Below, piece after piece: positions 1-44,692 of a stretch of DNA of 64,000 nucleotides (position 1 is its first letter; each line of letters starts with the position of its first letter). The position numbers and the translations under genes were made by a program. The notes under the pieces are model-generated. The model ran no database searches. It saw nothing but the letters and a program-made list of their open reading frames with translations, and had not been told where the DNA came from. The stretch is taken from positions 524 through 64,523 of the forward strand of contig JBILLN010000009.1 of NCBI GenBank assembly GCA_044376085.1, written 5' to 3'. The stretch comes from Bradymonadia bacterium. GTDB lineage: Bacteria > Myxococcota_A > Bradymonadia > UBA7976 > UBA1532.

Positions 1-1350
1 GTGCGCACCCGAACGGCACACGCCCTCGCCGGCCAGGGGCTTGCCGGCGCCGTCTTCTTTGCCGGGCAGTGCCTGATGCAGCCGGACACCTCCCTGCGCC
101 TGTCGAACGCCGTCAACGGCCTGATGGCGGCGGGCCTGGGGCTGGCGCTGGCCCTGCACCTCGACGCCACGCACCGGCGCGACTTCGGCCAACGGGCCCT
201 CATCGCGGAGCAGCAGGCGGCGCTGGCCGCGGGGCTCGAGCGGGTCAAGGCCCTCGCCGCGGCCGCCGAAGAGGCCAGCGCCGCCAAGAGCCGATTCATG
301 GCCAACATGAGCCACGAGGTCCGCACCCCGCTGAACGCCATCCTCGGGCTCGGCCGGTTGCTGGCCGCCGAGATCGAGCTGCCGCGTCACCGTGCGTGGC
401 TGGCCTCGCTGACCGGCGCCGGACGGACGCTCTCCGCCATGCTCGAGCGGGTGCTCGAGGCCTCGCGACTCGAGCAGGGCCCCGTGTCCTTCGAGCCGGA
501 CGAGACCGACGCGGTCCATCTCGTGCGCGAGGTCTGCGGTGCGTTCGAGCCCCACGCGGTCGAGAAGCACCTCACCCTCGACGTCGAGGTCCGGGGCGCC
601 CCGCCGCCTCCGCTGTGGCTGGACGGTCTGCGCCTGCGCCAGGTGCTGTTCAACCTGCTCGGCAACGCCTTCAAGTTCACGGAGCGCGGGGGCGTGACGG
701 TCACCGTGAGCGGCGCCGCTCGCCCGGACCGTACCTGTGACCTCCTCCTCGAGGTCGCGGACACGGGCATCGGCATTCCCGCCGAAGACCAGGCGCGCAT
801 CTTCCTGCCTTTCGTTCAGGTCGAAGGCCGCGGCCGCCCGGCGGCGGGGGGGGTGGGTCTGGGTCTCTCCATCGTCCACGGACTGGTGACGCAGATGGGC
901 GGCACGGTCCGCGTCGAGAGCACGCCGGGTCTGGGGACCCGGTTCCAGGTCGTCGTGCCGGCGCCGCTGGCCCCCGAGCCCGGCAGTCACGGGACGGGCC
1001 GCCCGCGCGATGTGCCGGCCCCGCGCGCGGTCTCCGCCGCCGCGACGCTTCCGCCGCTGCCACCGGCGGGTGGCCACTCGTGGCTGCCCGCGGCGATTCT
1101 GAAGGACTTGCGGGCCGCCCACGAGCAGTGCCGCCGGCGCCAGGAGATCGACGAGATCGCCGCCTTCGCGGACGCCACCGCGGAGGCGGGCCGGGCCCAT
1201 GGCAACCCCGCGTTCGAGGTGTTCGGCCGACGATTGCGGGCGGCGGCGGATGCGTTCGACGTCGGACCGATGTTCGAGCTGATCGAGTCGTTTCCCGCGC
1301 TCCTCGAGGCCGCGACCGACCCCGCCGACCCCGTCGAGAGTCCCCGATGA
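1..1350 (+). CDS. Sensor histidine kinase, probably 5'-truncated by the window edge
   Basis: H-box FMANMSHEVRTPLNAILG, N-box LLGNAFKFTERGG, DTGIGIP and GGVGLGLSIV ATPase motifs. Stop overlaps the next start (ATGA at 1347-1350). Confidence 0.85.
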   Translation: MRTRTAHALAGQGLAGAVFFAGQCLMQPDTSLRLSNAVNGLMAAGLGLALALHLDATHRRDFGQRALIAEQQAALAAGLERVKALAAAAEEASAAKSRFMANMSHEVRTPLNAILGLGRLLAAEIELPRHRAWLASLTGAGRTLSAMLERVLEASRLEQGPVSFEPDETDAVHLVREVCGAFEPHAVEKHLTLDVEVRGAPPPPLWLDGLRLRQVLFNLLGNAFKFTERGGVTVTVSGAARPDRTCDLLLEVADTGIGIPAEDQARIFLPFVQVEGRGRPAAGGVGLGLSIVHGLVTQMGGTVRVESTPGLGTRFQVVVPAPLAPEPGSHGTGRPRDVPAPRAVSAAATLPPLPPAGGHSWLPAAILKDLRAAHEQCRRRQEIDEIAAFADATAEAGRAHGNPAFEVFGRRLRAAADAFDVGPMFELIESFPALLEAATDPADPVESPR

Positions 1351-1892
1351 GTTCACCGACGCTCCCACCCGCCCCGCTCATCCTCGCCGTCGACGACGAG
1401 CCGCGGAATCTCCAGGTCATCGGTCCGCTGCTGAGCCGTCATGGGTTCCGGGTCTCCCTGGCCCTGAACGGGGCCCGCGCGCTCGAACTCGCGCTCGAGA
1501 CCCAACCCGACGTGGTCCTGCTCGACGTCTCGATGCCGGGCATGGACGGCTTCGAGGTCTGCCGGGCCCTCCGTGCCGACCTGCGCACCGCGGGCCTGCC
1601 GGTCATCTTCCTCACCGCCCGGACCGCCCGCGAGGACGTCCTGACCGGCTTCCGCGCCGGGGCCGTCGACTACGTGCCCAAGCCCTTCCACGACGAGGAG
1701 CTGATCGCCCGGGTGACCGTCCACGCCCAGCTCCGGCGCCTCCGCGGACTGCTCGTGGTCTGCGCGCACTGCCAACACATCCGCACCGAGGGCGAGCGCT
1801 GGGAGCGCCTCGACCACTACGTCGCCCGCCGCACGGACGCCCAGTTCAGCCATGGGCTCTGCCCGGACTGCGAGGCGAAGTTCTACCCGTGA
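1347..1892 (+). CDS. Response regulator: receiver domain plus C-terminal CxxC...CxxC tail, no classical output domain
   Basis: ILAVDDEPRN, DVVLLDVSMPGMDG and VDYVPKPF receiver motifs. Tail is VVCAHCQHIRTEGERWERLDHYVARRTDAQFSHGLCPDCEAKFYP. ATGA coupling to the upstream kinase. Confidence 0.9.
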   Translation: MSSPTLPPAPLILAVDDEPRNLQVIGPLLSRHGFRVSLALNGARALELALETQPDVVLLDVSMPGMDGFEVCRALRADLRTAGLPVIFLTARTAREDVLTGFRAGAVDYVPKPFHDEELIARVTVHAQLRRLRGLLVVCAHCQHIRTEGERWERLDHYVARRTDAQFSHGLCPDCEAKFYP

Positions 1893-1917
1893 CCCCCGCG
1901 GTGTATGCTGCGCGCGC

Positions 1918-2535
1918 ATGTTGAAGACCTTCTCCGCGGGTCAGGTCACCGCCGACGTGCTCGCCCACCTCGAGCGCCGGCGACCGGCCATCGTCCACGA
2001 CGACGCGGCCATCCGCTCGGAGGTCCTCGCGGCCCTCGAGCCCGTGCGCCGCGAGTACGCGGACATGGACCTGCCCGCCCGGTACTTCGACGCGCTCGAA
2101 AACGAGCTGCTCGGCGCCATTCCGGCGCGCTGGCGGCAGATCGCCGAGCCCTTCACGGAGGAGGAGCGCCGGGGGTTCGGCGTCTGGCGCGGCGGCGATG
2201 TCTTCGCGCGGCTGCTGTACGTCGGCGTCGGGCTGCTCGCCAGCGTCTTCGCCGCCCGCATTCTGCCGAGCTGGCAGAAGTGGCTGCCCTTCCTGTTCAC
2301 CGTGGGCGCATGGTGGCTCCCCGACCTCCAGGCGGGCTCCCGCCGGCGGCGGTACGCCCACCAGCTCGGTGAGATCGTGGCGCACATGGAGCAGGCCCAG
2401 CGCCAGCTCGAGCGCCAGGTGACGACCGAGGACCTGATCGGCGGCGACATCGATCGCCTGCGCGCCGCGCGCCGGTCCCCGACGGCCTCCGCGGCCGAGG
2501 TGTCCCACCGAGCGCCCGAGCGCGAGAAACCCTGA
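1918..2535 (+). CDS. Hypothetical membrane protein (two predicted TM helices)
   Basis: In-frame ATG at 1918 within ORF 1852..2535. Hydrophobic stretches LLYVGVGLLASVFAARIL and WLPFLFTVGAWWL. No recognised family. Confidence 0.55.
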   Translation: MLKTFSAGQVTADVLAHLERRRPAIVHDDAAIRSEVLAALEPVRREYADMDLPARYFDALENELLGAIPARWRQIAEPFTEEERRGFGVWRGGDVFARLLYVGVGLLASVFAARILPSWQKWLPFLFTVGAWWLPDLQAGSRRRRYAHQLGEIVAHMEQAQRQLERQVTTEDLIGGDIDRLRAARRSPTASAAEVSHRAPEREKP

Positions 2536-2550
2536 CCCTGGAGGTCGTGC

Positions 2551-3633
2551 ATGTCCACCCCCATCACCCCGCGCAGCGCGCCGTCCCTCGGCGGCGTCTT
2601 CCGAGGTCTCTGGGCCGTCGTCCGCTTCATCTTTGCGCGGCGCGTCCTCTGGATTCCCCTCGTCGTGGCGCTGGTCACCTTCGTCGGTTTCGGGGCCTGC
2701 ACCTACTACGTGCCACCCGGACACGTCGGGCTCATGCAGACCATCTACGGTTCCGAGGCCGGCATCCGGCCCGAGCCGCACATCGTCGGCCTGCACTTCG
2801 TCAACCCGCTCAGCGAGCGGATGCACCTCTTCCCGACGGACCTGCAGGTGGTCAACTACAGCGACTCCGCGAGCGAGACGAGCGAGGAGTTCCGCAGCAC
2901 GCCGTCCATCAAGATCCAGACGAGCGACGGGTATCAGGTGCAGCTCGACGTCTCCGTGCTGTACCGCATCAAGGACGCCCACAAGGTCTTCACCGAGGCC
3001 GGCCCCGGGCGGTCGTTCGAGGACCGTCTGGTCATCCCCCGGGCCGACCGCACCCTGCGCAAGACCCTCGGCGAGCTGAACGCCGAGCAGTTCTACCAGG
3101 GCCCGAGTCGCATCGAGAAGTCGCGCCGGGCCCACGAGGAACTCGCGGCCGATCTGGCCGGGTACGGCATCGAGGTCGACGGCGTCCTCGTCCGGAAGTA
3201 CACCTACGACCAGAAGTACCAGGAGATCATCGAGAGCCGGAAGATCAAGGACCAGACGGTCTTCCTGCGGCAGGCCGAGGCCAAGGCCGCGATCGAAGAG
3301 CGCAAACGGGACACGATCATCGCCGAGGGCAAGGCCACGGTGGGGGTCGAGGCTTCCCGCGGTGAGTCCGAGGTACGCAAGCTCGATGCCGACGCGGACC
3401 TCTACAAACGCAAGAAGGACGCCGAGGGCAAGCTGCTCGTCGAGCTCGCCGAGGCGCGCGGCACGCAGCTCGAGAACGACGCCCTCCAGGGCGCGGGCTC
3501 GGAGAACATGGTCGGCCTCAAGATGGCCGAGGTCCTCGATGGCCTGAGGGTGCTCGTCCTGCCCACGGACGGGGAGCGGGGCCTCAACCCGCTCGATCTC
3601 GGGAGCCTGCTCCAGAAGTTCGAGGTGAAGTGA
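2551..3633 (+). CDS. SPFH/band-7 (prohibitin/HflKC-like) membrane protein
   Basis: N-terminal TM (WIPLVVALVTFVGFGACTYY), SPFH-like core (VQLDVSVLYRIKDAHKVFTEAG) and coiled-coil-like C-terminal half. Confidence 0.85.
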   Translation: MSTPITPRSAPSLGGVFRGLWAVVRFIFARRVLWIPLVVALVTFVGFGACTYYVPPGHVGLMQTIYGSEAGIRPEPHIVGLHFVNPLSERMHLFPTDLQVVNYSDSASETSEEFRSTPSIKIQTSDGYQVQLDVSVLYRIKDAHKVFTEAGPGRSFEDRLVIPRADRTLRKTLGELNAEQFYQGPSRIEKSRRAHEELAADLAGYGIEVDGVLVRKYTYDQKYQEIIESRKIKDQTVFLRQAEAKAAIEERKRDTIIAEGKATVGVEASRGESEVRKLDADADLYKRKKDAEGKLLVELAEARGTQLENDALQGAGSENMVGLKMAEVLDGLRVLVLPTDGERGLNPLDLGSLLQKFEVK

Positions 3634-3634
3634 C

Positions 3635-4669
3635 ATGAAGACTCGAGGCTGCCTCGCCGCGCTCCTGCTGACCGGCGCCCTGACCCAGGGCTGCGCCACC
3701 CACTCCACCGGAGAGACCGAGGTGGGCGTGCTCGTCTGCAAGATCGGCCTCGGCTGCGCCCACCAGGGCGTCCAGTCCGTGGTCTACCCGCCCGGTTCGA
3801 CCAATTTCTTCGCCCCGTGGATTCGCGACTTCTACACCTTCGACACCAAGGTCCAGAACCTGCGGATGTCCGCCAAGACCCAGGAGGGCGTATCGGACGG
3901 ACAGAACGATCTGCAGTTCAAGACCACCGACGGCTCCGACGTCAGCATGGACGTGACGGTGGTCTGGGGCATCGACGCGCAGATGGCGCCGATGCTGCTG
4001 GAAACCGTCGGCAAGGACACCGAGGAGGTCAAGGAGAAGCTGGTCCGCCCGATGGCCCGTACCATCGTGCGAGACGTTCTGAATCGACTCGACAGCGAGT
4101 CGATCTACAACGCGGACAAACGCTTCCAGGGGGCGGAAGAAGCGCAGCGACAGCTCGGAGCGGCATTGACTGCCTACGGTATCCTGGTTTCGCAGGTGAT
4201 TCTGCACGAACACCGGTTTCCGACCGAGTACGAGAAGATCATCCACGACCGCAAGCTGGCCGAGCAACGCGCCGAGCAGCTCAAGAGCGAGGCCGAGGCC
4301 GCCCAGCAGGAAGCCCTGCGTGACCTCGAAGCCGCCCGTGGCAAGGTCGCCTCCGACCTCGCCCAGGCCCAGGGCGCCCTGAACCGCACCAAGCTCGAGG
4401 CCGACGCCCGGTACTACCAGAGCCAGCAGGAGGCCGAGGCCATCGTCGCCGAGCGTCAAGCCAAAGCCCAGGCCATCGCCAAGCGCAACGAGGCCCTTCG
4501 CGGCGCCGGCGGCCGGGCGATGGTCAAGCTGCGCATCGCCGAGGCCCTCCACGGCAAGCAGGTGGTGCTCGTCCCGGGCGGCGGGGGCGGGGGCTTGCAG
4601 CGCCTCGACGTCAACAAGCTCCTGGAGTGGTCATTGGCGACTCAGGAAGCCACGCCGGCTGGCCAGTAA
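3635..4669 (+). CDS. SPFH/band-7 domain lipoprotein
   Basis: Signal/lipobox MKTRGCLAALLLTGALTQGC, SPFH-like core (VSMDVTVVWGIDAQMAP) and a long Ala/Glu/Gln coiled-coil segment. Starts 1 nt after the previous stop. Confidence 0.85.
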   Translation: MKTRGCLAALLLTGALTQGCATHSTGETEVGVLVCKIGLGCAHQGVQSVVYPPGSTNFFAPWIRDFYTFDTKVQNLRMSAKTQEGVSDGQNDLQFKTTDGSDVSMDVTVVWGIDAQMAPMLLETVGKDTEEVKEKLVRPMARTIVRDVLNRLDSESIYNADKRFQGAEEAQRQLGAALTAYGILVSQVILHEHRFPTEYEKIIHDRKLAEQRAEQLKSEAEAAQQEALRDLEAARGKVASDLAQAQGALNRTKLEADARYYQSQQEAEAIVAERQAKAQAIAKRNEALRGAGGRAMVKLRIAEALHGKQVVLVPGGGGGGLQRLDVNKLLEWSLATQEATPAGQ

Positions 4670-4792
4670 GTCTTCCGAGCCGCTGCAGCCCCTTCCACAC
4701 ATTCCTCACAAGCTCCGAAATCCCCTCACTCAGATATCAGACGGTCCTCACACGCCGTGATTTTCTCCCGGCGGACGGGTCGTGATCCGCCT

Positions 4793-4808
4793 TGGCACGC
4801 CCCCTGCA
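4793..4808 (+). promoter_or_regulatory. Sigma-54 (-24/-12) promoter candidate
   Basis: TGGCACGccccCTGCA versus consensus TGGCACG-N4-TTGCW. GG (4794-4795) and GC (4806-4807) are exactly 12 nt apart. Lies about 60 nt upstream of the ATG at 4868. Confidence 0.55.
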
Positions 4809-4867
4809 CAAAGGCCCCGCGCACATAGTTTTCCACTCTCACTGGAAACCCACGCCCGGAGGCCCCC

Positions 4868-5005
4868 ATGATCCGCCAGACTCTTCGTGACCGCATCGTC
4901 GCCAACGTCCGCAAGCTCGACACCGACGTCAACGCCCACAAGAAGGCTCCGAAGGGCGAAGCCAAGTCCCAGGCGCCCCGCACGGTGACCCTCTTCGCCG
5001 GCTGA
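4868..5005 (+). CDS. Small ORF, 45 aa (MIRQTLRDRIVANVRKLDTDVNAHKKAPKGEAKSQAPRTVTLFAG); below the ORF-track length cut-off
   Basis: GGAGG at 4858-4862, 5 nt before the ATG. About 40 of 45 codons end in G/C, as in the flanking genes. Sits between the sigma-54 promoter and the next gene. Confidence 0.45.
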   Translation: MIRQTLRDRIVANVRKLDTDVNAHKKAPKGEAKSQAPRTVTLFAG

Positions 5006-5054
5006 ACCGCCGCCCCGGCACGCTCGACATTGACAGCGCCCCGGTGCCGGGCGA

Positions 5055-7016
5055 GTGTCGGCGCCCATGGACGCGGCCGATCTGATCCTCGTCCGGGATG
5101 CGCTGCACGCTTCGACGCGGCGACGCGTCCCGGCACCCGACCTTTGTGCCCGGCTCGAACGACGGCTCGCGCTGCTGTTCCCCGACGCGCTCGACCTCGC
5201 CGATCTGCCGCCGCCGCTCGTCGCCCATCGGGTGGCCCTGTCCCTGGGGCTCTCCCCCGGTGTCGCCGTCCCGCTGACGGAGGCGGCCTGCTACTACTAC
5301 GCGGCGGCTGATCTGGCCGACGACCTCGTCGACGAGCCCGTGCCCGGCCTCGAGGGACAGCTCGCGCTCAACGACGTCTGCGCCCTCCTGTTCCTGTTCC
5401 AGCTCGCCGCGCTGGAGATCCCCCATCCGCACGCCCCCGCGGTGGCCCGGCTCTTCCTCGAGGGCGGCCTGACGATGGCCGCCGGGCAGATGGACGACCT
5501 GCGGTTCACGGATGCCCCGGGGGGGGATCCGGTCTCCATCGCGCGCCGCAAGACGGGCGGCGAACTGGGGGCCCTCCTGGCAGCACCGGCCCTGCTCGCG
5601 GGCCTCGATCCGGCCCCCTTCGCCACCTTCGGCCGGGAAATCGGCGCGCTGGTGCAGGTGTTCACGGACTACCTCGATCTCTTCGCGAAGGAGAACAGCG
5701 ACGACTGGCGGGCCGCCAAACCGACGCTTCCCATCCGCCACGCGCTGGCGCACCCCCGCCTGGGGCCGACGGCCGCACGCCTGCTGGCCGGGGCGAGGCG
5801 CTCGGTCTCGCGCCAGCAGGCCGCGCGCTGGTGTCTGATCGCCGCCGGCACCGCCCGGGCCTGGCGCACCTTCGCCGACGAGCGGCTCCGCGCACTGGAG
5901 GCCGCGGTCCACCAAGCCGACACGCCGGCCGTGCTGCGGGCCCTGCTCGACGAGACCCGAGAGCTGACCTTCGCGGTGGACGACGCCCTCGCCGCCCTCG
6001 GCGAAGCCCCACCCCCCGAGGCGATCGATCCGGACCTGCCCGAGGAGCTCGCGGGGTGCCGCCGGGCGGCCCGGGCCTTCCTGGACGCCGATCCGTTGGC
6101 CGACGAAGCGACGGAGCACCACCGCTGGGGCCTCTTCGGCCGGGCGACGGTCGTCGCGAACCTCTTCGGCCAACTGGTCGTCGCCGAGCACCTGCGCGCC
6201 GCCGGCGAGCCCCCCGAACGGTTCGCCCGCTGCGCCGCCGCCGCCCTCTCGCGCCGCGATCCCGATGGCTGGCGCTACTATCCCGGCCAGCGCGAGATTC
6301 CGCCCGACGCGGACCTCACCGGCCTGGCGCTGCAGGTCCTCACCGCGCAGGTGCCCGGCGACGCGGAGGCCATCGCGTTCAGCCTGGCCGCGCTGCGCCG
6401 CGACCAGCTCGCGGACGGCACCCTCCCCACCTGGCTGACGAACGGCGCGCGCGAGCCCGCGGCGTCGGACGCCGATGCGCAGCCCGGCCCCCTCCCCTGG
6501 ATGGGCGAACGCTGCCCGGCCTCCATGGCCAACGCCGTGCTCGGCTGGCACCGTGCCCGGCCGGCCGACCCCGACCTGCAAAGGGCCGTCGAGCGGCTCG
6601 CCGCGTGGTACGACGCCGACGAGTCCCCCCCGTCGGCCTTCTACGGCCCCGTCGTCGTCGAGGCCCTGGGGCTGCTCTGTCTCTCCGCGTGCGCGCCGGG
6701 TCGATACGCGGCGGTCGAAGCTCGACTCGTCGCGCGCCTGCGGGCCCGACGCCAGCTCTCCGGCGAATTCGGCACCGTGCTGGAGACGGCCTTCGCGGCC
6801 ATCGCGCTCGCGGCCGTCGGGGCCCTCGACGCGCCCGAGGTCGTGCAGCGCGCGCTCGTCGACGCCCAGGGGGCCGACGGCGGATACCCGGCGTGTCCGT
6901 TCTACGTGACCGTGGGCGCCCACCACGAGCCGGGGACGTTCGGCGCCCGCTGCGTCACCACCGCGCTCGTCCTGCGGGCCCTGCGCGCCGCCGAGGGCGG
7001 GGGGGCCGCCGGTTGA
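5055..7016 (+). CDS. Fusion protein: polyprenyl-synthase-like N-domain plus prenyltransferase/squalene-cyclase-repeat-like C-domain
   Basis: N-domain: AADLADDLVD (DDxxD), AAGQMDDL, RRKTGGELGALLAAPALLAG, IGALVQVFTDYLDLF (degenerate second Asp motif). C-domain: repeated DG-aromatic motifs (DPDGWRYY, LADGTLPTW, GADGGYPA) and PPDADLTG where cyclases have DxDDTA. Start could be GTG 5055 or ATG 5067. Confidence 0.7.
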   Translation: MSAPMDAADLILVRDALHASTRRRVPAPDLCARLERRLALLFPDALDLADLPPPLVAHRVALSLGLSPGVAVPLTEAACYYYAAADLADDLVDEPVPGLEGQLALNDVCALLFLFQLAALEIPHPHAPAVARLFLEGGLTMAAGQMDDLRFTDAPGGDPVSIARRKTGGELGALLAAPALLAGLDPAPFATFGREIGALVQVFTDYLDLFAKENSDDWRAAKPTLPIRHALAHPRLGPTAARLLAGARRSVSRQQAARWCLIAAGTARAWRTFADERLRALEAAVHQADTPAVLRALLDETRELTFAVDDALAALGEAPPPEAIDPDLPEELAGCRRAARAFLDADPLADEATEHHRWGLFGRATVVANLFGQLVVAEHLRAAGEPPERFARCAAAALSRRDPDGWRYYPGQREIPPDADLTGLALQVLTAQVPGDAEAIAFSLAALRRDQLADGTLPTWLTNGAREPAASDADAQPGPLPWMGERCPASMANAVLGWHRARPADPDLQRAVERLAAWYDADESPPSAFYGPVVVEALGLLCLSACAPGRYAAVEARLVARLRARRQLSGEFGTVLETAFAAIALAAVGALDAPEVVQRALVDAQGADGGYPACPFYVTVGAHHEPGTFGARCVTTALVLRALRAAEGGGAAG

Positions 7017-8458
7017 ACACCGCGGAGCCGGCCGCCGACCCCGTCCGCGTTTCCCGCACGCGGACCTTTCTGTTCACGCACGCCCTGCTCGCCGGGCTGG
7101 TGGTGGTGGTGGCCGTCATCCAGGACCTCACGCGGGAGGGGGCCGCGCCCGCCCTCGCCCCCTGGATCGGGCCCGCCGTGGGCGCCCTCTCGGGTCTGCT
7201 CGCCTGGGCCGTCTTCGCCCGGCTCGGACCCCGGCCCTGGCTGATTCCCGGCCTGCTGGGGGTCGACAGCGCCGTCCTGACGGTCGCCAACTTTGCACAG
7301 GGCGAGGTCGAGACGCCCTGGAGCGGCATGTGCGTCCTCATGCTGGTCATGCTGCCGCTCTTCACCGGCGGACAACGCGCCGTCTGGGCGCTGGCCGCGT
7401 TCCAGATCGCCTTCTTCGGCGCGGCCATGTACCTCCGGGCGGACGGGGTGATTCCCCCGATCTTCAGCACCACCGATTTCGCCCACGATCCGGCATACGT
7501 CATGGGTTCGGTCCTGATCTTCGCGTTCGTGTGCATCGGTGGGGCCATCCTGGCCGGCCGCACGAGCGTCGACGTGCTGAACAGCCAAGACCAGCTCCGG
7601 CGCGAGATCGATCGCGCCGTGGCCGCCTTGAAGGCCGCGCAGGCGCGCCTGGTGCAGCAGGAGAAGATGCTCGGCCTCGCCAAACTCACCGCCGGCATGG
7701 CGCACGAGATCAACAATCCCCTGACCTTCACGCTGACGAATCTGCGCAGCCTGGAGCGGGACATGGAGGACATCCTGGCGCTTCAGCGCCGCTACGACGA
7801 GGCGCTCGAACACCTCGCCGCGACCGCGCCCGACCTCTACCGGCAGCTCCGGCGGGCCCGGCGCGACCTCCACATCGACGATCCGCAGGCGGTGCTCGGG
7901 GAGCTCGTCCGGGACGCGCAGACGGGCGTCACCCGCGTCCAGACGATCGTCGAGGACCTCAAGACGTTCGCGCGGATGGACGAGGCGCCCTTCAAGGCCA
8001 TCGACGCCGAGACGTTGCGGGCCGGCATCGACTCGACGCTGCGCATGCTGGAGCACGTGCTCGCGGGCCGGGCGCACCTCGTCGTCGAACACGGCGATAC
8101 CGGGACGGTCGACGTGGCCCCGGCACTCCTGAATCAGGTCGTGATGAACCTGGTGCAGAACGCCGCCGAGGCCGTGACGCCGCCCGACGGCCGGGTGCGC
8201 GTCTCGACCCGGCGCGACGGCGACGCGCTGGTGATCGAGGTCGCCGACAATGGTCCGGGGATTCCCGCCGATCTGCGCGAGCGGGTCTTCGACCCGTTCT
8301 TCACCACCAAGACCGTCGGTGAGGGGACGGGCCTGGGGCTCAGCCTCAGCTACCAGATCGTCGATCGCCACGGCGGACGCATCGAGATTGCCACGGCACC
8401 CGAGGGTGGGGCACTGTTGCGAACTGTGCTCCCGGTGGCCGGGAGGTCCCCGTCGTGA
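7013..8458 (+). CDS. Multi-TM sensor histidine kinase
   Basis: TTG 7013 is the only start-like codon upstream of about 6 hydrophobic helices and overlaps the upstream stop (TTGA). H-box [15 protein letters not shown]-box [23 protein letters not shown]. Confidence 0.8.
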
Positions 8459-8474
8459 AACGGAGTCCCAGTCC

Positions 8475-9689
8475 ATGAGCGAGCGGACCGTCACGCCTGC
8501 GCCCCCCGAGCCCGTCGATCCGGAGGCCGAGGACGACGGGCCGGCGCACACCATTCTCATCGTCGACGACGAGCCGATGACCGTCTCGGCGATGCGCCAC
8601 CATCTTCGCCGGCAGTACACCTGCCTGGGGGCCACGCAGGCCAGCCAGGCCCTCGAACTGCTCGAGAAACACGACGTCTCCATCGTCATCTGCGACGAAC
8701 GCATGCCCCACATGGCGGGGCACCAGTTCCTCGAAAAGGTCTCGTCCCGCTGGCCCCACACCAGCCGCATCCTGATGACCGCCTACGCCGACCTGCCCGC
8801 GCTCGTCCGTGCGGTGAACCACGGCCAGATCCTGGGGTATCTCTCCAAGCCATGGCACCCGGACGAGCTCGACACGGTCATCCGCAAGGCCGTCGCGGTG
8901 CAGGACATCATCCGCGAGAAGCAGCGGGTCCAGGCCGATCTGGAGCGGGCCAACGACGACCTCCGGCGCGTCGTGGGCAAGTTGCGCGACTTCACCCACG
9001 CCGTGGCCCACGACCTTCAGGAGCCCCTGCGGACGATCTCGGCGTATGCGTCGATCCTCCAGGACGACGTGGGGCCGAGCCTCGAGGCCGAACCCCGGCA
9101 GTTCCTCGCCGGGATCTCGCGGTGCAGCGAGCACCTGCGCAGCCTCATCGACGATCTCCTTCAGTTCAGCGAGATCGAGCGCCTGCCCCTGCGGCACGTC
9201 CAGGTCGGCCTCGACGACATCGTCCATCAGGCCCGGCGCCTGCTCGATGGCGTCCTGACCGCCGGAGATGCCGAGATCGAGGTCAAGGGCCCCCTGCCCG
9301 CCGTCCACGGCGACCCCGGACGTCTCATCGTGCTGTTCCAGAACCTGATGTCCAACGGTCTCAAGTTCAATCGAAGCCGACCGCGCCGGGTCGAGGTCCA
9401 CCCGGTCGTCGCGGGCCCGGGGCGCGTCGCGGTCATCGTGCGCGACAACGGCATCGGCATCGCCCCGGAGCACCACGAGCGGGTGTTCCAGATCTTCCAT
9501 CGCCTGCACACGAAGTCCGAGTACCCGGGCACCGGCGCCGGTCTGGCGATCGCGCGTCAGGTGGCCGAGGTCCACGGGGGCAGCTTGACGCTCGCCTCGG
9601 CGGTGGGTCAGGGCACCACGTTTCGCGTCGAGTTGGCGGTCAGCGGTGGCCTGCCGGACCGGGGCAGCCTCAGCGGGGTGTCACGCTGA
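8475..9689 (+). CDS. Hybrid receiver-histidine kinase
   Basis: ATG 8475. Receiver (ILIVDDEPM, IVICDERMPHMAG, YLSKPW), then H-box FTHAVAHDLQEPLRTI and ATPase motifs NLMSNGLKFN, DNGIGI, GTGAGLAIA. Confidence 0.88.
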   Translation: MSERTVTPAPPEPVDPEAEDDGPAHTILIVDDEPMTVSAMRHHLRRQYTCLGATQASQALELLEKHDVSIVICDERMPHMAGHQFLEKVSSRWPHTSRILMTAYADLPALVRAVNHGQILGYLSKPWHPDELDTVIRKAVAVQDIIREKQRVQADLERANDDLRRVVGKLRDFTHAVAHDLQEPLRTISAYASILQDDVGPSLEAEPRQFLAGISRCSEHLRSLIDDLLQFSEIERLPLRHVQVGLDDIVHQARRLLDGVLTAGDAEIEVKGPLPAVHGDPGRLIVLFQNLMSNGLKFNRSRPRRVEVHPVVAGPGRVAVIVRDNGIGIAPEHHERVFQIFHRLHTKSEYPGTGAGLAIARQVAEVHGGSLTLASAVGQGTTFRVELAVSGGLPDRGSLSGVSR

Positions 9690-10353
9690 GCACGTAGGCG
9701 CCGCGGTCGGGGTTGGCGCCCCCCGCGTGGCCGTCCACGATGATGTACAGGACCTCGCCCGCTTCGAGGGGGGTGGTGACCTGGCTGAGCGGCGGAAACG
9801 CCGCGTCGTCGTTGCAGGTGATGGCCTCGGCGTCCTGACACGTCGCCCGCACCGAGATCAGGGTGTCCCACTTCGGCTCGGTCGACTCCGTATCGATGCG
9901 CCAGTTGCCCGCGGCCGGCGCCACGAAGCGGTGGAGCACGTCCGGGGACCCGGCGCCCCCGCACGGGCTGCTCGTCGCGTCCGTGGCGCCGGTGGTGTCC
10001 CCCACGTAGCGGAAGCCCGGGCCGTCCGGGTGAGCATTGACGTCGACGGAGGTCACGACGACGTCCGGGGGGCAGTCGATGACCGTGGCATCGGGTGCGG
10101 CCGCGTCCGGCACGTCGGCATCGGGCTCGGCCCCCCCCGACGGCGTGCCGCCCGACGGCGTGCCGCCCGACGGCGTGCCGCCCGACGGCGTGCCGCCCGA
10201 CGGCGTGCCGCCCGACGGCGTGCCGCCCGACGGCGTGCCGCCCGCCGCGGCGCCGGCGTCGTTCTCGTCCGCCTCGTCGCTGCTGCAGGCGCCGGTCGGG
10301 ACGAGGGCGAACACGAGAAGGGCCGCGGTCATGGCCGTCGGGTTGAGTTGCAT
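9670..10353 (-). CDS. Lipoprotein with (GGTPS)x7 linker and a C-terminal PPC-like beta-sandwich domain (assigned by eye)
   Basis: ATG at 10353 preceded by GGAGG. Signal MQLNPTAMTAALLVFALVPTGAC. C-terminal GNWRIDT...DTLISVRATC...CNDD...GEVLYIIVDGH...GAYVLSV. Lower part of the long spurious ORF 9670..13269. Confidence 0.75.
   Translation of the reverse strand: MQLNPTAMTAALLVFALVPTGACSSDEADENDAGAAAGGTPSGGTPSGGTPSGGTPSGGTPSGGTPSGGTPSGGAEPDADVPDAAAPDATVIDCPPDVVVTSVDVNAHPDGPGFRYVGDTTGATDATSSPCGGAGSPDVLHRFVAPAAGNWRIDTESTEPKWDTLISVRATCQDAEAITCNDDAAFPPLSQVTTPLEAGEVLYIIVDGHAGGANPDRGAYVLSVTPR
10136..10240. repeat. Perfect 15-bp tandem repeat x7 (cccgacggcgtgccg), encodes GGTPS x7 on the minus strand
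   Basis: Seven identical consecutive units read directly from the sequence. Confidence 0.95.
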
Positions 10354-10518
10354 CGGTGACCTCCGCTGGTCGATGGTTGCCGCGATCGGTCGATACGATG
10401 CCGGCATGCGGTATGCAGACGCAAGCCGGGGAACGAAATCGACTCCCGATGACCGGGCGCGGCCCCTTTGCCTCGCGCTCATTCCACACCGAGCTCGGCG
10501 CTCGGAAGGAGACGTACC

Positions 10519-13125
10519 ATGAGAGACGACCCGAGAACGACGCCGTCGCCCCGAGGGGTGTCCCCCTTCGGCGCGTCGACCGGCCCGCGGAAATCCGAGG
10601 TCGACCGCCTCGGATTTCCGTCGAGAGCCGGGCTGTTCGGTGCCGGATGCCTTTTGCTGGGCCTCCTTTCGGCCTGCGACCCAGCGGATCCGGACGACAA
10701 GGTGGATGCAGGCGGCGGTGGCGCCGCGACCGGCGGTCAAACGGGCGGCGCCGGCGGCGACGTCGGCGGCAGCACCGGCGGGGGTATCGTCGGCGGCGAC
10801 ACCGGCGGCAACGTCGGCGGCAACGCGGGCGGCACCAGCGGCGGCAACGAGGGCGGCACCACCGGCGGCAGCACCGGCGGCAATACCGGCGGCAACGCGG
10901 GCGGCAGCACCGGCGGCAACGAGGGCGGCAGCACCGGCGGCAGCACCGGCGGCAACGAGGGCGGCAGCACCGGCGGGGCCGGTGGCGAAGAGCCGCCCCC
11001 TTGCCCGGACGCCGATGCGGACGGGCTGTGCGACGCCGAGGACGCCGAGTGCAACGCCGACGGGCAGCCTGCGCTGTGCGACGCGGTCTCCCCCGATTGC
11101 CGCGCGGGCACGGTGCCCGAGGTGGCCAACGGCTGCTATACGGGCCGCTGCGTGACCTGGGCCGAGTGCGGCGGGGCCCCTCCGCCACCGGTGGACCCCT
11201 GCACGCCCGTCGAACCGGGCGAGTTCGGAGACTGCCGCGCCCTCATCGGCTGGGCCGCCAATGGCGACGGCACCTGCGGCATGGTCAGCGGCTGCGGCTG
11301 TGACGACCGCTGCATCGGCCGGGTGTTCGACAGCGAGGAGGCCTGCCTGCTGGCCTGCGTCGCGCCCCCCGAGCCGGCGTTCTGTGGCGGTTTCGCGGGC
11401 ATCCCCTGCCCGGCCGGCGAGATCTGCATCGACGACCCCACCGACGACTGCGACCCGGCAGCCGGCGGCGCGGACTGCGGGGGCATCTGCGTACCGCAGG
11501 CGTGTCCGGACGCCGACTTCGACGGTCGGTGCGACGGCGAGGACGCGGAGTGTAACGCCGACGGCAGCCTCCTGATGTGCCGGCGGGCCCCCCCCATCTG
11601 TCCGCGGGGCACCGTGCCGGAGGTCCGCGAGGGGTGCTACACGGACGCCTGCGTGACCTGGGCCGAGTGCGGCGGGGGCGTCGAAGACGCGTGTGGCCTG
11701 CCCCCGGACCCGGGTCCCTGCGAAGCTGCCATTCGGCGCTTCTACCACGACGCCGCCACGGGGACCTGCCAGGTCTTCATCTACGGAGGCTGCGCCGGCA
11801 ACGCCAACAACTTCGAGACCCTCGAGGCCTGCGAGGCGGCCTGCGGCGGCGCGATGTGCGTCCGCGAACCGAGCCTCTCGCCGCGTGCGCCGATGTACGA
11901 CCGCTACGAAGGCACGGGCTTTCCCAACGCCTGCCGAACGGACGACGACTGCTTCCGCGGCGGCTGCTCGGGCGAGGTCTGCTCGGCCACGCCGGACGTC
12001 GTGACCACCTGCGAGGTGGTGCCCATGCCCGACGGCGCCTGCGGCTGCGTCGCGGGGGAGTGCCAGTGGTTCGTCGACTCGTGCAACGGGGGCTGCCCCG
12101 ACGCCGACCGCGACGGCCTCTGCGATGCCGACGACGGCGAGTGCAATGCCGACGGCAATCCGGCCCTCTGCGACCGCGTCCCGCCGCCCTGCCGCGTCGG
12201 CACGGTGCCCGAGGTCGCCAACGGGTGTTACACCGGCGCCTGCGTCACCTGGGAGGCCTGCGGCGGCGGCGTCATCGACGCCTGCGGCCTGCCCCCGGAT
12301 GCGGGCCCCTGCGACGCCGCCATCCGGCGCTGGTTCCACAACCCCGAGACCGGGGCCTGCGACGTCTTCGTCTACGGCGGCTGCGGGGGCAATGCCAACA
12401 ACTTCGAGTCTCTGGACGCCTGCGAGGCGGCCTGTGGAGGCGTCGCGCCGCCCCCGGCGATGTGCAGTCCGGTCCGCGAGGGCGAATACGGCTTCTGCCT
12501 GGCGGTGATCGGGTACGGCATCGGCGCCGACGGCACCTGCCAGGCCATCAGCGGCTGCGGTTGCGACGACACCTGCATCGGTCGTGTGTTCGAGACGCCG
12601 GAGGGCTGCGAGGCGACGTGCGGCGGGGGCGTCGTCGACGCCTGCGGCCTGCCTGCGGACCCGGGCCCCTGCGACGCGGCGATCCGACGGTGGTTCCACA
12701 ATCCCCAGACGGGTGCCTGCGAGGGCTTCGTGTACGGGGGCTGCGGTGGCAACGGCAACAACTTCGAGAGCCTCGAGGCGTGCGAAGCGGCCTGCGTCCT
12801 CGCCTGCCCGGATGCGGACGTCGACGGGGCCTGTGACGCCGAGGACAGCACCTGCAATGCGGACGGCTCGCTCTTGATGTGCCGCCGCGTGGCGCCCATC
12901 TGCCCCCGCGGCACGGTGGCCGAGGTCCGTGAGGGCTGCTACACCGACGTGTGTCTGACGTGGGCCGAGTGCGCGCGCGCGGTGGCCCCGCCCGTGGGTC
13001 AGGCCTGCGGCGGCTTCGCCGGCTTCCTCTGCCCCGAGGGACTGGCCTGCGTCGACGCTCCGAACGACGGCTGCGATCCTCGCAACGGCGGAGCCGACTG
13101 TCCCGGCGTCTGCGTCGTCCCCTGA
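10519..13125 (+). CDS. Modular Cys-rich lipoprotein with three Kunitz/BPTI domains (putative multi-headed protease inhibitor)
   Basis: AAGGAG SD (10507-10512). Lipobox LLLGLLSAC. Gly-rich (GGSTGGNE-like) linker. Module order A-B-C-A-Kunitz-E-A-Kunitz-B-Kunitz-A-C. The Kunitz domains align by eye to BPTI over all 6 Cys. Confidence 0.88.
11692..11844 (+). other. Kunitz/BPTI domain 1 (Cys1 to Cys6), P1 = Glu
   Basis: [51 protein letters not shown]. 51 residues Cys1-Cys6, as in BPTI C5-C55. GPC-x, YGGC and NNF motifs present. Confidence 0.85.
12283..12435 (+). other. Kunitz/BPTI domain 2, P1 = Asp
   Basis: [51 protein letters not shown]. Confidence 0.85.
12643..12795 (+). other. Kunitz/BPTI domain 3, P1 = Asp
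   Basis: [51 protein letters not shown]. Confidence 0.85.
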
Positions 13126-16820: not shown

Positions 16821-16956
16821 GGGCGCACTCTGAACCCGGCCGCGGGGTGCTGACAAGTCGGGGGTGCGCGCGCCGACGGCGCTTGACCCCATGCGCGGGG
16901 CGGGGTCATGGTACGGACGCGCCAGTCCGGAAACGTGTCAGGAGACCCGAAAGCCC

Positions 16957-19005
<2,049 letters not shown>

Positions 19006-33289: not shown

Positions 33290-36200
33290 TCAGGGGAAGG
33301 CGCAGGTCAGCGGATTGCCGGCCGGGCGCTGCCCGTTTGGACAGAGCGTGGCCGCGCTCAGGGTGTTGCCGAGGAAACTCGCCACGGGTCCGGTGACCCA
33401 GCGCAGGTTGGCGCCGGAGAAGTTGCTCGACCCGAATGAGGTCCCGGCAAAAATGCCGTACTGAAGATCACAGGCCGCGAAGTTCGTCCGCAGGACAAAC
33501 GCCCGACTGAAAGAGGCCGCGTACAGACCGCAGCGGCCGTTCCCCCCAAGGTCGTTGAAGTCGGAATCTATCAACGTCGCGTCGCCGAAGTCCGGACCCG
33601 AGTTGCGGTCATCGGACCATACGGCCCCGGCGAAGTGGGCCCGTGTGAGGTTGCTGCCCCGGAACGAGGGCCCCCCTCCCAAATCGCTGGCCCAGGTGTT
33701 ACCGGCGTCGACGTCGGTGAGCTCACAGTCAGTGAACTGGGTCCCAGTGACGAGCGCGCCGGTCAGGCGCGAGTCCCTGAGGTAGCAGGCGTCGAAGGAC
33801 GCGCCCCCCAGGTGCGCCGAATCGAAGCGCGTCTCCACGACGAACGTCCCGTCGAGCATGGCCTGCTCCAACCGGGCGTGGGTGAAGTCCACCCCCGCCA
33901 GGACGTTGCCGGACAGATCCACCCGGTCGAGGATGGCGGCCGTGCCGACCTCCGAAGCGTCGAAGCGGGCCCCGGTCAGCGAGCACTGCGGGCAAGACAC
34001 GCCGCGCATCTTGACCCGCCCGAACCAGGCCCCGCGCAGGTCCACGTGGTCGAGCGTCGCGCCGGCCAGGTTGGCCGAGCGGAGAGTCGCGTCCGTCAGG
34101 CGCGTGCGCCACACGAAGCAGCCGTCGTCGACGTGCGCGAACGCGGTCTCGCAGTTGGCATCAGCGCTCGGCGGACAAACTGCATCCAGTTCCAGGCAAT
34201 CGATCGGCCGCGGCATGAAGGCGTCATAGTTGGCGTCCCCGGCCATGAGCCCGACCAGGTTCGCCGAGCTCAGATCGGCCCCGTCGAGATCGGCCCCCGA
34301 GAGCACCGCCCCGGAGAGGTTTGCGCCCCGAAGGGTGCTGCACGCGGCCGGGTCGGCGACTCGTGTCCAGTTGTTGCGGTTGTCGCGGGTCCGGATGGTG
34401 AGCTCGTAAGGCAACCGGATGACCGCGTTACCGGGGAACGCCTGACGGGTGACCGAGACCCGGAACGTCTGGAGACCCACGCCATTGTAGGTCGTGCGCG
34501 CTCGGGTCCGGCCGCTGACCGAGGTGTTGTTGGGCAACGTCAGCGTCACCGTGACCCCGAGTTGTTGGGCGAAACCGTCTTCCTCGTAGATCAACCGGGT
34601 CAGAACGGGATCCTCGTAGCGGCTGACGACGACCTCGATCTCACGGGCGGCCGTCGCCGTGAAGGTGAAGTGGTCGGCGAGGTCGTTGGGGGCGCAGAGG
34701 CCCAGGTTGCGCGTCGAGCCCACCGGCAAGGCGGCGGCGTGCGCGGCGTCCTGATTGGGCTCGAAGCGATCTGCGCAGAAGTCATCATCCACGAGCGGCG
34801 GGACGTCGCAGCCCAGCCGGGTGCGGTCGAGCACGGCCCCTTGAAGTTGGGCACCCTCGAGGTTCACCGCCTTCATGGAGGCCCTCGTGAGGTTGCTGTT
34901 GATCAGGTTCGCGCCGGACAGGTAGGCCCGGTCGAAGATGGCCCCCGTCAGGTTGGAGAGCGAGAGGTTCGCGCTGTTCAGGTTGGCCCGATCGAACGTG
35001 GCCCCGGTGAGGTTGGAGAGCGAGAGGTCCGCCTCCGCGAGGCAGGCCCGGGTGGCGTGGACGCCGGCCAGCAGCGCGCTGGAGAGGTTGGCCCCTCGGA
35101 GCCACACGCCCTCCAGATAGGCCCCGCTCAGATCGGTCTGCGTGAAGAGCGCCTCCGCGAGATCGATCGGCGCATGGCCCGCGCCGGCGCAGGGAGTCGC
35201 CGGGGCGGCGCCCCGACCCAGGACGGCGCCGCGCAGGTTCGCGCCGGTGAAGTCCGCGGCGGTCAGCACGGCCCCCGAGAGGTCGGCCCCGCTCAGGTTC
35301 GCCGAGAAGAAGACCGCGCCGGGCAGGCTCTGACCGACCAGGCCGGTGCCCGCCAGATTCGCGAACGAGAAGTCCACGCCGGCCCACCCCCCGGGCAATG
35401 CCAGCCCGGAGAGGTCCTGCCCCGACAGGTCGACGCCGGCCAGGCGGCCGCCGGCGAAGACCGTACCGGCCGCCGCCGCCGCGTCCAGGTCCGCGCGCGT
35501 CAGTCGCACGCCCAGCGTGTCCAGCCGCGCCTCGGGCAGAGACTGCAGCCCGATGGCCAGCACGACCGCCTCCGACGCCCCCTCCGCGAGCGTCACGCTG
35601 CGCTCCGCGAGGCTGAACCCGGGCCGCTCGACGTGCAGCCAGTACTCCCCGGCGGGCAGGGCCTCGAACGTCGTCCCGCCCGCGGGTCCGTCGCGCACCC
35701 CGGCCACGACGCGGCTGAGGCCGGGGCCGTCGAGGCGGACGCTCACCGCCCGGTCCACGGGTTTGACCCAGTGCGGGCCGACCTCGACGGTCACCTGGAT
35801 TCGACCGGTGGGGGGCGGCCGGTCCAGGTCGAGCTCCGCCGGCGCCCCCGCCGCCGTCTCGAAGCGCGCGTCCGCCGGATCCCAGCTCAGGGGGCCGAAG
35901 GGCGCCGGCGCCACGAAGCCCGCCCGCTGCACGTGCAGGACGTACGCCTCGTCCGGGGCCGCCGGCAGCGTGAAGGCCCCCGCCGCGTCCGTCACGGTCC
36001 GGCCGAGGGTCAGCGCCGTCCCCGCGAGGTCGGCCCGGATGGTCGTGCCCCCGTGGTCGACCGCGCCGGCGAGGCGCACGCGCCCCGAGAGCAGGACGGC
36101 GTCGGGCGTCTCCGAGCCGTGGACGAGCAGGAGCGTCCCGGCGTCGAGGCTCTGGCCGGGCCCCAGCGCCTGCGGCTGCTCGGCCGCCCCGTACCCCGTG

Positions 36201-39793: not shown

Positions 39794-40175
39794 GGGTGAA
39801 TCCTCGACCGCGCGCGGGTCGGGAACACACCCGGGCTGCCGCGGCGGCGTCGACGAGCCGGAATGTCTGCCGCTGGCGACCGCTCGGCGTGCAACGGACT
39901 CGACCTTCCGGCGAGTCGTCACAGGGTCGCGCGACGGTTCGGGTCGACGGTAGGCGTGGGTCCGGGGAGCGTCAACCCGTGGCGGGGTCACGCATCTCAC
40001 CGGTCACACCGCCTCCGGCGCGGAACCCATTGAATCAACTCATGAATTCGCCCAATCTGCCGAACTGGCCATTGACCTCGATCAAGCGACACACGACGAC
40101 AGATCCGAATTCGTTGCCGGGTGGCACACGTGTATGGGATGGGCAGGGTCCGGGGGAGCAATGGGAGGTGTGCAC

Positions 40176-44642: not shown

Positions 44643-44692
44643 CCAAGGCGAGTAGTTCTGGACACGGTCGATTCATCGGAAGGTGAGGGGAC

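Follow-up and report, generated by a model that had tools for sequence, protein, structure and literature searches.

A candidate lipopeptide signaling module of the ComQXP type, built on a fused prenyltransferase-cyclase, in Myxococcota

To our knowledge, Bacillus was for a long time the only known source of prenylated-peptide pheromones of the ComX type, and kinase-linked relatives of the PalPXQ type and fused prenyltransferase-cyclase (P-C) maturases, all of them acting on Trp, have been described only since 2023-2024. Here, we describe a four-gene operon at positions 4793-9689 of a 64-kb stretch of DNA from a Bradymonadia bacterium (contig JBILLN010000009.1; the whole stretch, with a guanine-plus-cytosine [GC] content of 72%, is called the window below). 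It belongs to a locus family that joins kinase-linked prenyl-peptides with P-C maturases in a Gram-negative phylum, Myxococcota, known for social behavior. Comparative analysis of its sequence tips the balance slightly toward reading the locus as a ComQXP-like lipopeptide signaling module built on a fused prenyltransferase-cyclase.

ComQ keeps the FARM, or first Asp-rich motif, of trans-IDS enzymes (trans-isoprenyl diphosphate synthases) and lacks the second (SARM) (PMC10853753). StheQ, a homologue of ComQ, shows in its crystal structure a pseudo-SARM of the form Q212-x-x-N215-D216-x-x-D219 that serves the acceptor, and Mg2+ is bound at the FARM only (bioRxiv 10.64898/2026.08.29.745113). Paenibacillus alvei encodes PalP-PalX-PalQ, a conserved trio of a histidine kinase, an NHLP-type precursor, and a trans-IDS-like prenyltransferase (PMC10853753). 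ChrPC (Hubrich et al., Chem 2024), a maturase of ribosomally synthesized and posttranslationally modified peptides (RiPPs), is bifunctional by the account given in a review (PMC13290415): with a trans-IDS-like P domain and an MstE-like C domain, it uses C10-C20 donors to prenylate an internal Trp, after which it cyclizes the prenyl group, and NctPC carries out the same reaction with a P domain of the ABBA fold.

The window operon resembles ComQXPA in its small precursor with a C-terminal core, its trans-IDS-fold enzyme with FARM and pseudo-SARM, its adjacent polytopic kinase, and the fact that the operon encodes no exporter or protease of its own. Its genes are ordered X-Q-P, compared to Q-X-P in Bacillus, and the window system differs further in having a precursor without Trp, an extra class II cyclase domain, a TDxxD rather than NDxxD pseudo-SARM, a receiver (REC)-kinase hybrid rather than the NarL-type ComA, a sigma-54-type promoter, and a Gram-negative Myxococcota host. 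The likeness to ComQ (family IPR033965) is one of fold, motifs, and gene layout. As in PalX and StheX, the acceptor of the window peptide presumably lies at or beside the C-terminus, but PalX combines a long leader of the NHLP type with a C-terminal Trp; neither PalPXQ, from Firmicutes, nor StheQ/StheX, from Chloroflexus according to the title of the preprint, includes a cyclase domain. ChrPC has the same two-domain P-C layout as the window enzyme, a comparison drawn from its description (PMC13290415) and not from its sequence. ChrPC and NctPC modify Trp, and the account of them in that review reports no kinase link, whereas the window family combines a Trp-free precursor of 34-45 amino acids (aa) with an obligatory kinase. 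The isoprenylated C-terminal peptide signals of the CaaX/fungal a-factor type, which are likewise lipophilic, offer an analogy only: T-L-(F/Y)-X in the window family recalls C-a-a-X by position, both lying 1-2 residues from the C-terminus, whereas the CaaX enzymes have an unrelated fold (alpha/beta heterodimeric zinc enzymes) and use a Cys thiolate nucleophile.

The genes of the operon and the domains and motifs of its enzyme are as follows, with the basis of each assignment in parentheses.

4868-5005, + strand: precursor peptide gene, 45 aa (open reading frame [ORF] and conservation)
5055-7016, + strand: fused enzyme, 653 aa (ORF)
5055-5999, + strand: P domain of the enzyme, aa 1-315, trans-IDS fold (Pfam, Protein Data Bank [PDB] profile, and Foldseek)
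5319-5333, + strand: FARM, D89-D90-x-x-D93 (invariant column)
5655-5678, + strand: pseudo-SARM, Q201-V-F-T204-D205-Y-L-D208, or QxxTDxxD (alignment)
6036-7016, + strand: C domain of the enzyme, aa 328-653 (AlphaFold [AF2] model, Foldseek, and profile)
6300-6323, + strand: acid motif, P416-P-D418-A-D420-L-T-G (profile alignment)
6867-6887, + strand: QW-like motif, Q605-x-x-D-G-G-Y (alignment)
7013-8458, + strand: sensor histidine kinase, 481 aa (ORF)
8475-9689, + strand: REC-HisKA-HATPase hybrid kinase, 404 aa (Pfam)

The four ORFs and the promoter lie exactly where a first-pass annotation, made from the sequence alone, had placed them; every coordinate was verified. Peptide and enzyme ORFs are 49 nt apart, and the database twin of the enzyme (P0001), of 649 aa, begins with the ATG at 5067. 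The TTG start of the kinase overlaps the TGA stop of the enzyme (TTGA), and 16 nt separate the kinase from the hybrid. A terminator-like hairpin at 4741-4758 lies past the same-strand genes upstream, and a convergent minus-strand gene downstream ends near 9670, so that the operon is taken to end at 9689. With the hairpin and the upstream genes before the promoter and the convergent gene after the hybrid, the unit is delimited as 4793-9689.

Related loci, designated here by L numbers, were fetched in three ways: by look-ups from enzyme relatives, by scans of genome and metagenome collections, and by look-ups from the peptides. The locus scan used the 11 closer enzyme sequences (alignment A2), not the full 17-sequence alignment (A1). 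Whether the queries were enzymes or peptides, the synteny of peptide, enzyme, and multitransmembrane kinase is kept down to about 40% enzyme identity. The co-conservation of these three genes in relatives answers the question, raised by the first-pass annotation, of whether enzyme and kinase travel together elsewhere. No transporter, protease, immunity gene, tailoring gene, or DNA-binding regulator is conserved with this core across the fetched loci. A gene for a TIR_2-nSTAND1 protein (a STAND NTPase) stands beside the core in two lineages (L007, 1-1529, - strand; L022-L024, 10849-13875, + strand).

The 45-codon ORF is a real gene. Its GC contents at codon positions 1, 2, and 3 (0.63, 0.46, and 0.87) match those of the neighboring genes, and the antisense ORFs overlapping it lack this codon-position signature of the genome. 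The encoded peptide, MIRQTLRDRIVANVRKLDTDVNAHKKAPKGEAKSQAPRTVTLFAG, consists of an N-terminal motif (IRQTLRDRIVANVRK), a variable basic linker, and a C-terminal RTVTLF followed by AG. At least 12 distinct lineages of Myxococcota encode a peptide of this family, 34-45 aa long, immediately upstream of the enzyme. These peptides share an N-terminal helix motif, (I/L)(K/R)xx(I/V/M)(L/V)xN(L/V)(R/K), and a near-invariant C-terminal RTV(T/S)L(F/Y), after which only one or two small residues precede the stop. A profile search collected 31 peptide clusters (34-45 aa), all annotated as hypothetical and all adjacent to the enzyme where context was available. Six-frame motif scans together with a peptide hidden Markov model located the peptide as a neighbor of the enzyme in the window and in L001-4, L007-16, and L019-26, on the same strand and directly upstream except in L007, where it is nearby but on the opposite strand. 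The codons for the C-terminal hexapeptide differ synonymously by lineage (CGC/CGG, ACG/ACC, GTG/GTC, ACC/ACG/AGC, CTC/CTG), indicating selection at the protein level. The precursor gene is moreover tandemly repeated in several loci, with six copies in L011 (4654-5684), about 10 in L013 (3964-5575), at least three in L016 (1-360), and three to five in L019/L020 (6471-7111). The tandem copies are near-identical, encode 34-36 aa, each have their own GGAG-type ribosome-binding site, and recur with a period of about 160-178 nt. Such multicopy arrays are typical of RiPP and pheromone precursors. The small ORF thus passes the conservation check that the first-pass annotation had proposed, as a gene under protein-level selection that is often tandemly amplified. 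From this conservation we infer that the N-terminal amphipathic motif is a recognition element and that the C-terminal RTV(T/S)L(F/Y)xx is the modified core.

The N-terminal half of the enzyme matches Pfam polyprenyl_synt over aa 105-233 (34 bits, cut-off 27). Its profile retrieves the long-chain trans-prenyl diphosphate synthases 4lob and 3wjk from the PDB with E values of about 1e-13, and Foldseek aligns this half of the model with geranylgeranyl and farnesyl diphosphate synthases at TM-scores of about 0.7. In the profile-to-PDB alignments, the first Asp of the SARM is replaced, TDYLD standing in place of DDxxD and QxxTDxxD for FQxxDDxxD. Compared to the QxxNDxxD of ComQ and StheQ, the window enzyme has Thr at the position of Asn, FARM and pseudo-SARM being otherwise alike. 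The motifs that bind isopentenyl diphosphate (IPP), GGKRxR and RRG, are absent from the enzyme: ADLPPP occupies the GGKRMR position, and no RRG follows the FARM. The NCBIfam octaprenyl synthase model scores only 12 bits, compared to a cut-off of 412. Since the IPP motifs and the SARM are replaced while the acid and QW motifs of the cyclase are invariant, we read the enzyme as a prenyltransferase that does not elongate chains, fused to an active cyclase of the protonation type.

The AF2 model of the enzyme (predicted local distance difference test score, 89.7; predicted TM-score, 0.89) has two all-helical domains with a junction at about aa 316-327. The second of them had been noted as an extra alpha/alpha-toroid-like domain, which fold and profile now identify as a class II terpene cyclase domain. 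Foldseek matches this half to the 345-aa monodomain cyclases of Cystobacter/Archangium, 8pak and 8paj (TM-score, 0.71-0.72), as well as to MstE (6sbg; 0.67) and SsDMS. A C-domain profile (A3), used because the PDB search with the single sequence was too weak, matches class II cyclases, namely, drimenyl diphosphate synthases, drimenol synthases, and the QW repeats of squalene-hopene cyclase. In the profile alignment, D420 corresponds to D333 of AsDMS (P-D-D-L-D333-T-T, a DxDTT motif), the residue that is Asn in the D333N mutant entry 9m7d. Across the family the acid motif reads P-P-D418-A-D420-(L/D/C)-(T/A)-G, with DADD in many relatives; D418, D420, and Q605/D608/G609 are invariant in all 17 members, and the fusion of P and C domains is invariant as well. 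On this model and these alignments, the C domain belongs with the class II terpene cyclases and is of the monodomain type, like MstE, and not of the beta-gamma type. The MstE-type and drimenyl cyclases (MstE, 8paj/8pak, and the drimenyl diphosphate and drimenol synthases 7xq4 and 9mhs) share with it the single alpha/alpha-barrel (TM-score, 0.67-0.72), a QW-type motif, and the aligned catalytic Asp, but they are stand-alone or HAD-fused and act on farnesyl diphosphate or geranylgeranyl-dihydroxybenzoate, whereas the window C domain has a peptide-type prenyltransferase as its fusion partner. Two other readings of this domain, as LanC-like or as a beta-subunit of protein prenyltransferases, were rejected on these fold and profile matches, the acid Asp of class II cyclases being aligned.

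The enzyme family is rare, with 17 clusters in a word-indexed search, all of 634-671 aa. An exhaustive search of representatives shows that it merges gradually into a far larger set of proteins that share this layout and measure 600-680 aa; 223 clusters reach E <= 1e-30, and there are examples with HDDLIDGD and LPPDIDD motifs. The sole matches from cultured organisms are P0016 and P0017, of 669-671 aa, from Sorangium sp. So ce260 and So ce834, in which the cyclase motifs PPDADD and QxxDGSW are kept and the FARM is lost (AAGDAAVAV), so that their P domain is probably inactive or repurposed. In a further subclade with 36-38% identity (L017, 1283-3220; L018, 5848-7848), the kinase is still downstream; the acid motif is CTETT in L017 and CIDTT in L018, the pseudo-SARM is SDAFD, and the two loci have in common an upstream stretch that includes a 22-codon ORF, MRRPAVRKYRKTVRA(N/K)SSAPRG. 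The sister-clade enzyme of L005 (locus at 1055-13072; 31% identity), with DADD intact, overlaps the end of an upstream kinase with transmembrane (TM), HisKA, HATPase, and REC parts; next come a canonical polyprenyl synthase gene and a set of menaquinone genes (UbiE-like, MenF, MenD, MenH, MenB, MenA, and MenC-like).

Pfam confirms HisKA and HATPase_c in the kinase and Response_reg, HisKA, and HATPase_c in the hybrid, and hydrophobicity supports the multi-TM nature of the former, as the first-pass annotation had claimed. About six hydrophobic TM segments lie within aa 16-189 of the kinase, which has no large periplasmic loop; its H-box is of the NtrB/AtoS type, AHEINNPL (H231), and its best full-length NCBIfam matches are AtoS, ZraS, PgtB, and EspA/C. 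Kinases of the AtoS/ZraS/PgtB type usually partner NtrC-type regulators, which are sigma-54 activators, and a kinase of this class therefore fits the sigma-54-type promoter. In tblastn searches with the window proteins, wherever sequence past the enzyme is available, a kinase orthologue comes directly next. The match of these orthologues (18 distinct sequences) takes in the TM domain, at 28-41% identity, the specificity of the sensor domain resting on tblastn within the fetched loci. Polar residues in or near the membrane helices are conserved (R..R..FL.tH, DS, E..W, R..G, and the juxtamembrane S.DVlNSQ). The hybrid, with its phospho-acceptor D74 and with H179, adjoins the core downstream in L001/3/8/9/12/25/26 and upstream in L002/11/13/19/20.

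Three elements precede the peptide gene, as follows.

4704-4751, + strand: direct repeat CCTCAC, three copies with starts at 4704, 4724, and 4746 (sequence inspection)
4793-4808, + strand: sigma-54-type promoter element TGGCAC-N5-CTGCA, TGGCACgccccCTGCA (motif scan and footprint)
4829-4850, + strand: inverted repeat TTTCCA-N-TGGAAA in the 5' untranslated region (conserved in alignment A4)

The promoter element has its -24 GG at 4794-4795 and its -12 GC at 4806-4807, about 60 nt before the peptide ATG. Over both strands of the window, TGGCAYN5YTGCW has no match other than TGGCACgccccCTGCA, with 0.11 matches expected by chance; 9 of 100 shuffled windows gave at least one match. L001, L008, and L014 share this element at the same place, and L009, whose enzyme is 62% identical, has it in the form TGGCATaggcgTTGCT; in the alignment of L001, L014, and L009 (A4), GG and GC are invariant and the spacer varies, and in L010 the upstream element, TGGCACgacaaTCGCA, departs from the strict consensus. 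The proposed sigma-54-type element is thus borne out by a single match in the window and by conservation at orthologous loci with canonical spacing. The CCTCAC repeats lie 47-89 nt upstream of the -24 element at a spacing of 20-22 nt and overlap the hairpin at 4741-4758. The first two of the three are kept in L001 and L014 (A4), and it may be speculated that they form an activator binding region. The inverted repeat in the predicted 5' untranslated region is conserved down to L009, with a fold z-score of -2.3. A hairpin in the 49-nt region between peptide and enzyme genes was considered as an attenuator and dropped, as it folds no better than shuffled sequences (z = -0.54).

Building on conservation, synteny, motifs, fold, and the promoter footprint, a ComQXP-like module would work as follows. 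The product of 4868-5005 would be a ribosomal precursor whose N-terminal motif is recognized and whose C-terminal core is modified. The P domain, through its FARM/Mg2+ site, would bind an allylic prenyl diphosphate, probably C15-C20, and would move the prenyl group onto a core residue without chain elongation, as its motifs and the precedent of ComQ, PalQ, and ChrPC suggest; transfer to the peptide core instead of elongation is proposed because the IPP site is lost. The C domain would then protonate the distal double bond via D420 and cyclize the prenyl chain, in keeping with its class II motifs and with ChrPC, NctPC, and MstE. The resulting terpenyl-peptide would be released after proteolysis and export, and the co-conserved 6-TM kinase may sense this hydrophobic ligand inside the membrane, a pairing suggested by strict synteny only. 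Kinase and REC-kinase hybrid could in turn signal to an unlinked NtrC-type activator acting on the sigma-54 promoter of the precursor gene, which would amount to autoinduction.

Which residue could accept the prenyl group? Candidates from the conserved core are the near-C-terminal Phe/Tyr, at the same position as the Trp of ComX, PalX, and StheX, Phe being a poor nucleophile; the hydroxyl of a conserved Thr/Ser, there being one position that holds only Thr or Ser and another with an invariant Thr; and an invariant Arg. His is absent from the 13+26 peptide sequences collected, save for one in the linker of the window peptide. The full picture, for uncultured Myxococcota, of a terpenyl-peptide pheromone that is self-made, linked to its cyclized terpene through a non-Trp acceptor (Thr/Ser-O, Arg-N, or the Phe/Tyr ring), read by the dedicated 6-TM kinase, and amplified through sigma-54 is put forward tentatively, with somewhat less than even confidence.

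Several observations weigh against a peptide signal of this kind or against the proposed control. Trp and Cys are both absent from every one of the 13+26 peptide sequences, so that what had been stated for the window peptide is true of its family and indole chemistry is not available to the precursor, and all characterized trans-IDS-like peptide prenyltransferases target Trp (2026 review, PMC13290415); the prenylation of this peptide would therefore be without chemical precedent for the fold. The strict sigma-54 motif occurs in closer relatives only and was not found in more distant loci. A scan of about 18 window ORFs, which was not exhaustive, found no Sigma54_activat domain or enhancer-binding protein, and neither the cluster nor the scanned ORFs hold a helix-turn-helix protein or DNA-binding response regulator; in the operon, there is no NarL-type regulator like ComA but only the REC-HisKA-HATPase hybrid. 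The hybrid itself is not next to the core in L006/7/10/22-24. Finally, no RTVTL-type peptide was found in the available flanks of L005, L017, and L018 (L006, which comes without upstream sequence, is uninformative on this point), and since these sister clades keep enzyme and kinase without it, the kinase may sense a terpenoid and not a peptide.

This last point bears on the possibility that a free cyclic terpenoid or a prenylated small molecule is the kinase signal, the peptide being otherwise employed, for instance as a modulator of kinase or enzyme. L005, where polyprenyl synthase and menaquinone genes are adjacent, would fit such a signal, as would the action of class II monodomain cyclases such as MstE on small-molecule meroterpenoids and the lack of a good aromatic nucleophile such as Trp in the peptide. 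Against this, no locus of the window clade that is sufficiently sampled lacks the peptide, and the invariance of its C-terminal hexapeptide and its tandem amplification are expected of a stoichiometric substrate, not of a regulator; the P domain, moreover, carries the ComQ-type substitutions tied to peptide acceptors (bioRxiv 10.64898/2026.08.29.745113). We therefore regard a free terpenoid signal as improbable. An ordinary isoprenoid-pathway enzyme beside unrelated two-component genes, with a spurious small ORF, is hardly credible. Pfam and some source annotations do point to a polyprenyl or geranylgeranyl diphosphate synthase, but the enzyme has neither the IPP-binding motifs nor a canonical SARM, its cyclase fusion is invariant, the small ORF shows coding-type GC and synonymous variation in at least 12 lineages, and the synteny is strict, so that the comparative data effectively refute this explanation.

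It is also conceivable, if rather unlikely, that the locus makes a RiPP natural product, such as an antibiotic, a surfactant, or a membrane-active lipopeptide, and that the kinases regulate its production or sense envelope stress instead of serving as receptors. The fused maturases ChrPC and NctPC come from RiPP clusters that are not described as quorum sensing in the account of PMC13290415, multicopy precursor arrays are common in RiPP antibiotic clusters, and the cluster has no DNA-binding output regulator. However, peptide, enzyme, and kinase are all that is conserved, with no exporter, leader protease, immunity gene, or tailoring gene among the shared genes; the tandem copies are near-identical and not diversified; and the kinase is translationally coupled to the enzyme, its ligand-less, all-membrane sensor domain co-evolving with the locus. 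The ComQXPA-like logic suggested by the first-pass annotation has in turn withstood, on the basis of comparative genomics, every in-silico test proposed for refuting it: the small ORF is conserved, the genes are syntenic in relatives, and the enzyme does not look like one of the ordinary isoprenoid pathway.

The claim that such a system would be undescribed holds in part. The P-C architecture has been published with ChrPC (PMC13290415), and the trio of kinase, precursor, and prenyltransferase has been published with PalPXQ (PMC10853753). In the literature covered, which did not include the original ChrPC study, we found no description of the Trp-free precursor family, of coupling to a 6-TM kinase in Myxococcota, or of sigma-54 control. 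What is new is that the precursor has neither Trp nor Cys, that a kinase is obligatorily linked, that the promoter is of the sigma-54 type, and that the host belongs to Myxococcota. If the proposed lipopeptide signaling is correct, it would extend ComX-like lipopeptide quorum sensing to a Gram-negative phylum for the first time and give peptide prenyltransferases of the trans-IDS fold, which is attractive for biocatalysis, their first non-Trp acceptor chemistry, and it would bring a new class of terpenyl-peptide signals together with a peptide-receptor pair of Myxococcota. If it is wrong, the strictly conserved pair of enzyme and kinase still points to a two-component system that senses a terpenoid.

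The surroundings of the operon in the window hold several other genes. At 1-4669 (+ strand), there are genes for a kinase, a stand-alone receiver whose C-terminal tail is rich in Cys, a hypothetical protein, and two SPFH/Band_7 proteins. The same kinase/receiver/Band_7 set is found in L001, L008, L025, and L026; being confined to the window's own clade, it is placed outside the conserved core. Downstream, an ORF of 885 aa at 10468-13125 (+ strand; GC at the third codon position, 0.90) encodes three or more protease-inhibitor domains of the Kunitz/BPTI type (Pfam E = 2e-57), a domain more typical of animals and unusual in bacteria. A PrkA-type serine protein kinase gene (AAA_PrkA and PrkA domains) lies at 16834-19005 (+ strand) and is followed by large unannotated ORFs, among them one of 2237 aa at 33290-40003 (- strand) and one of 1882 aa at 44687-50335 (+ strand).

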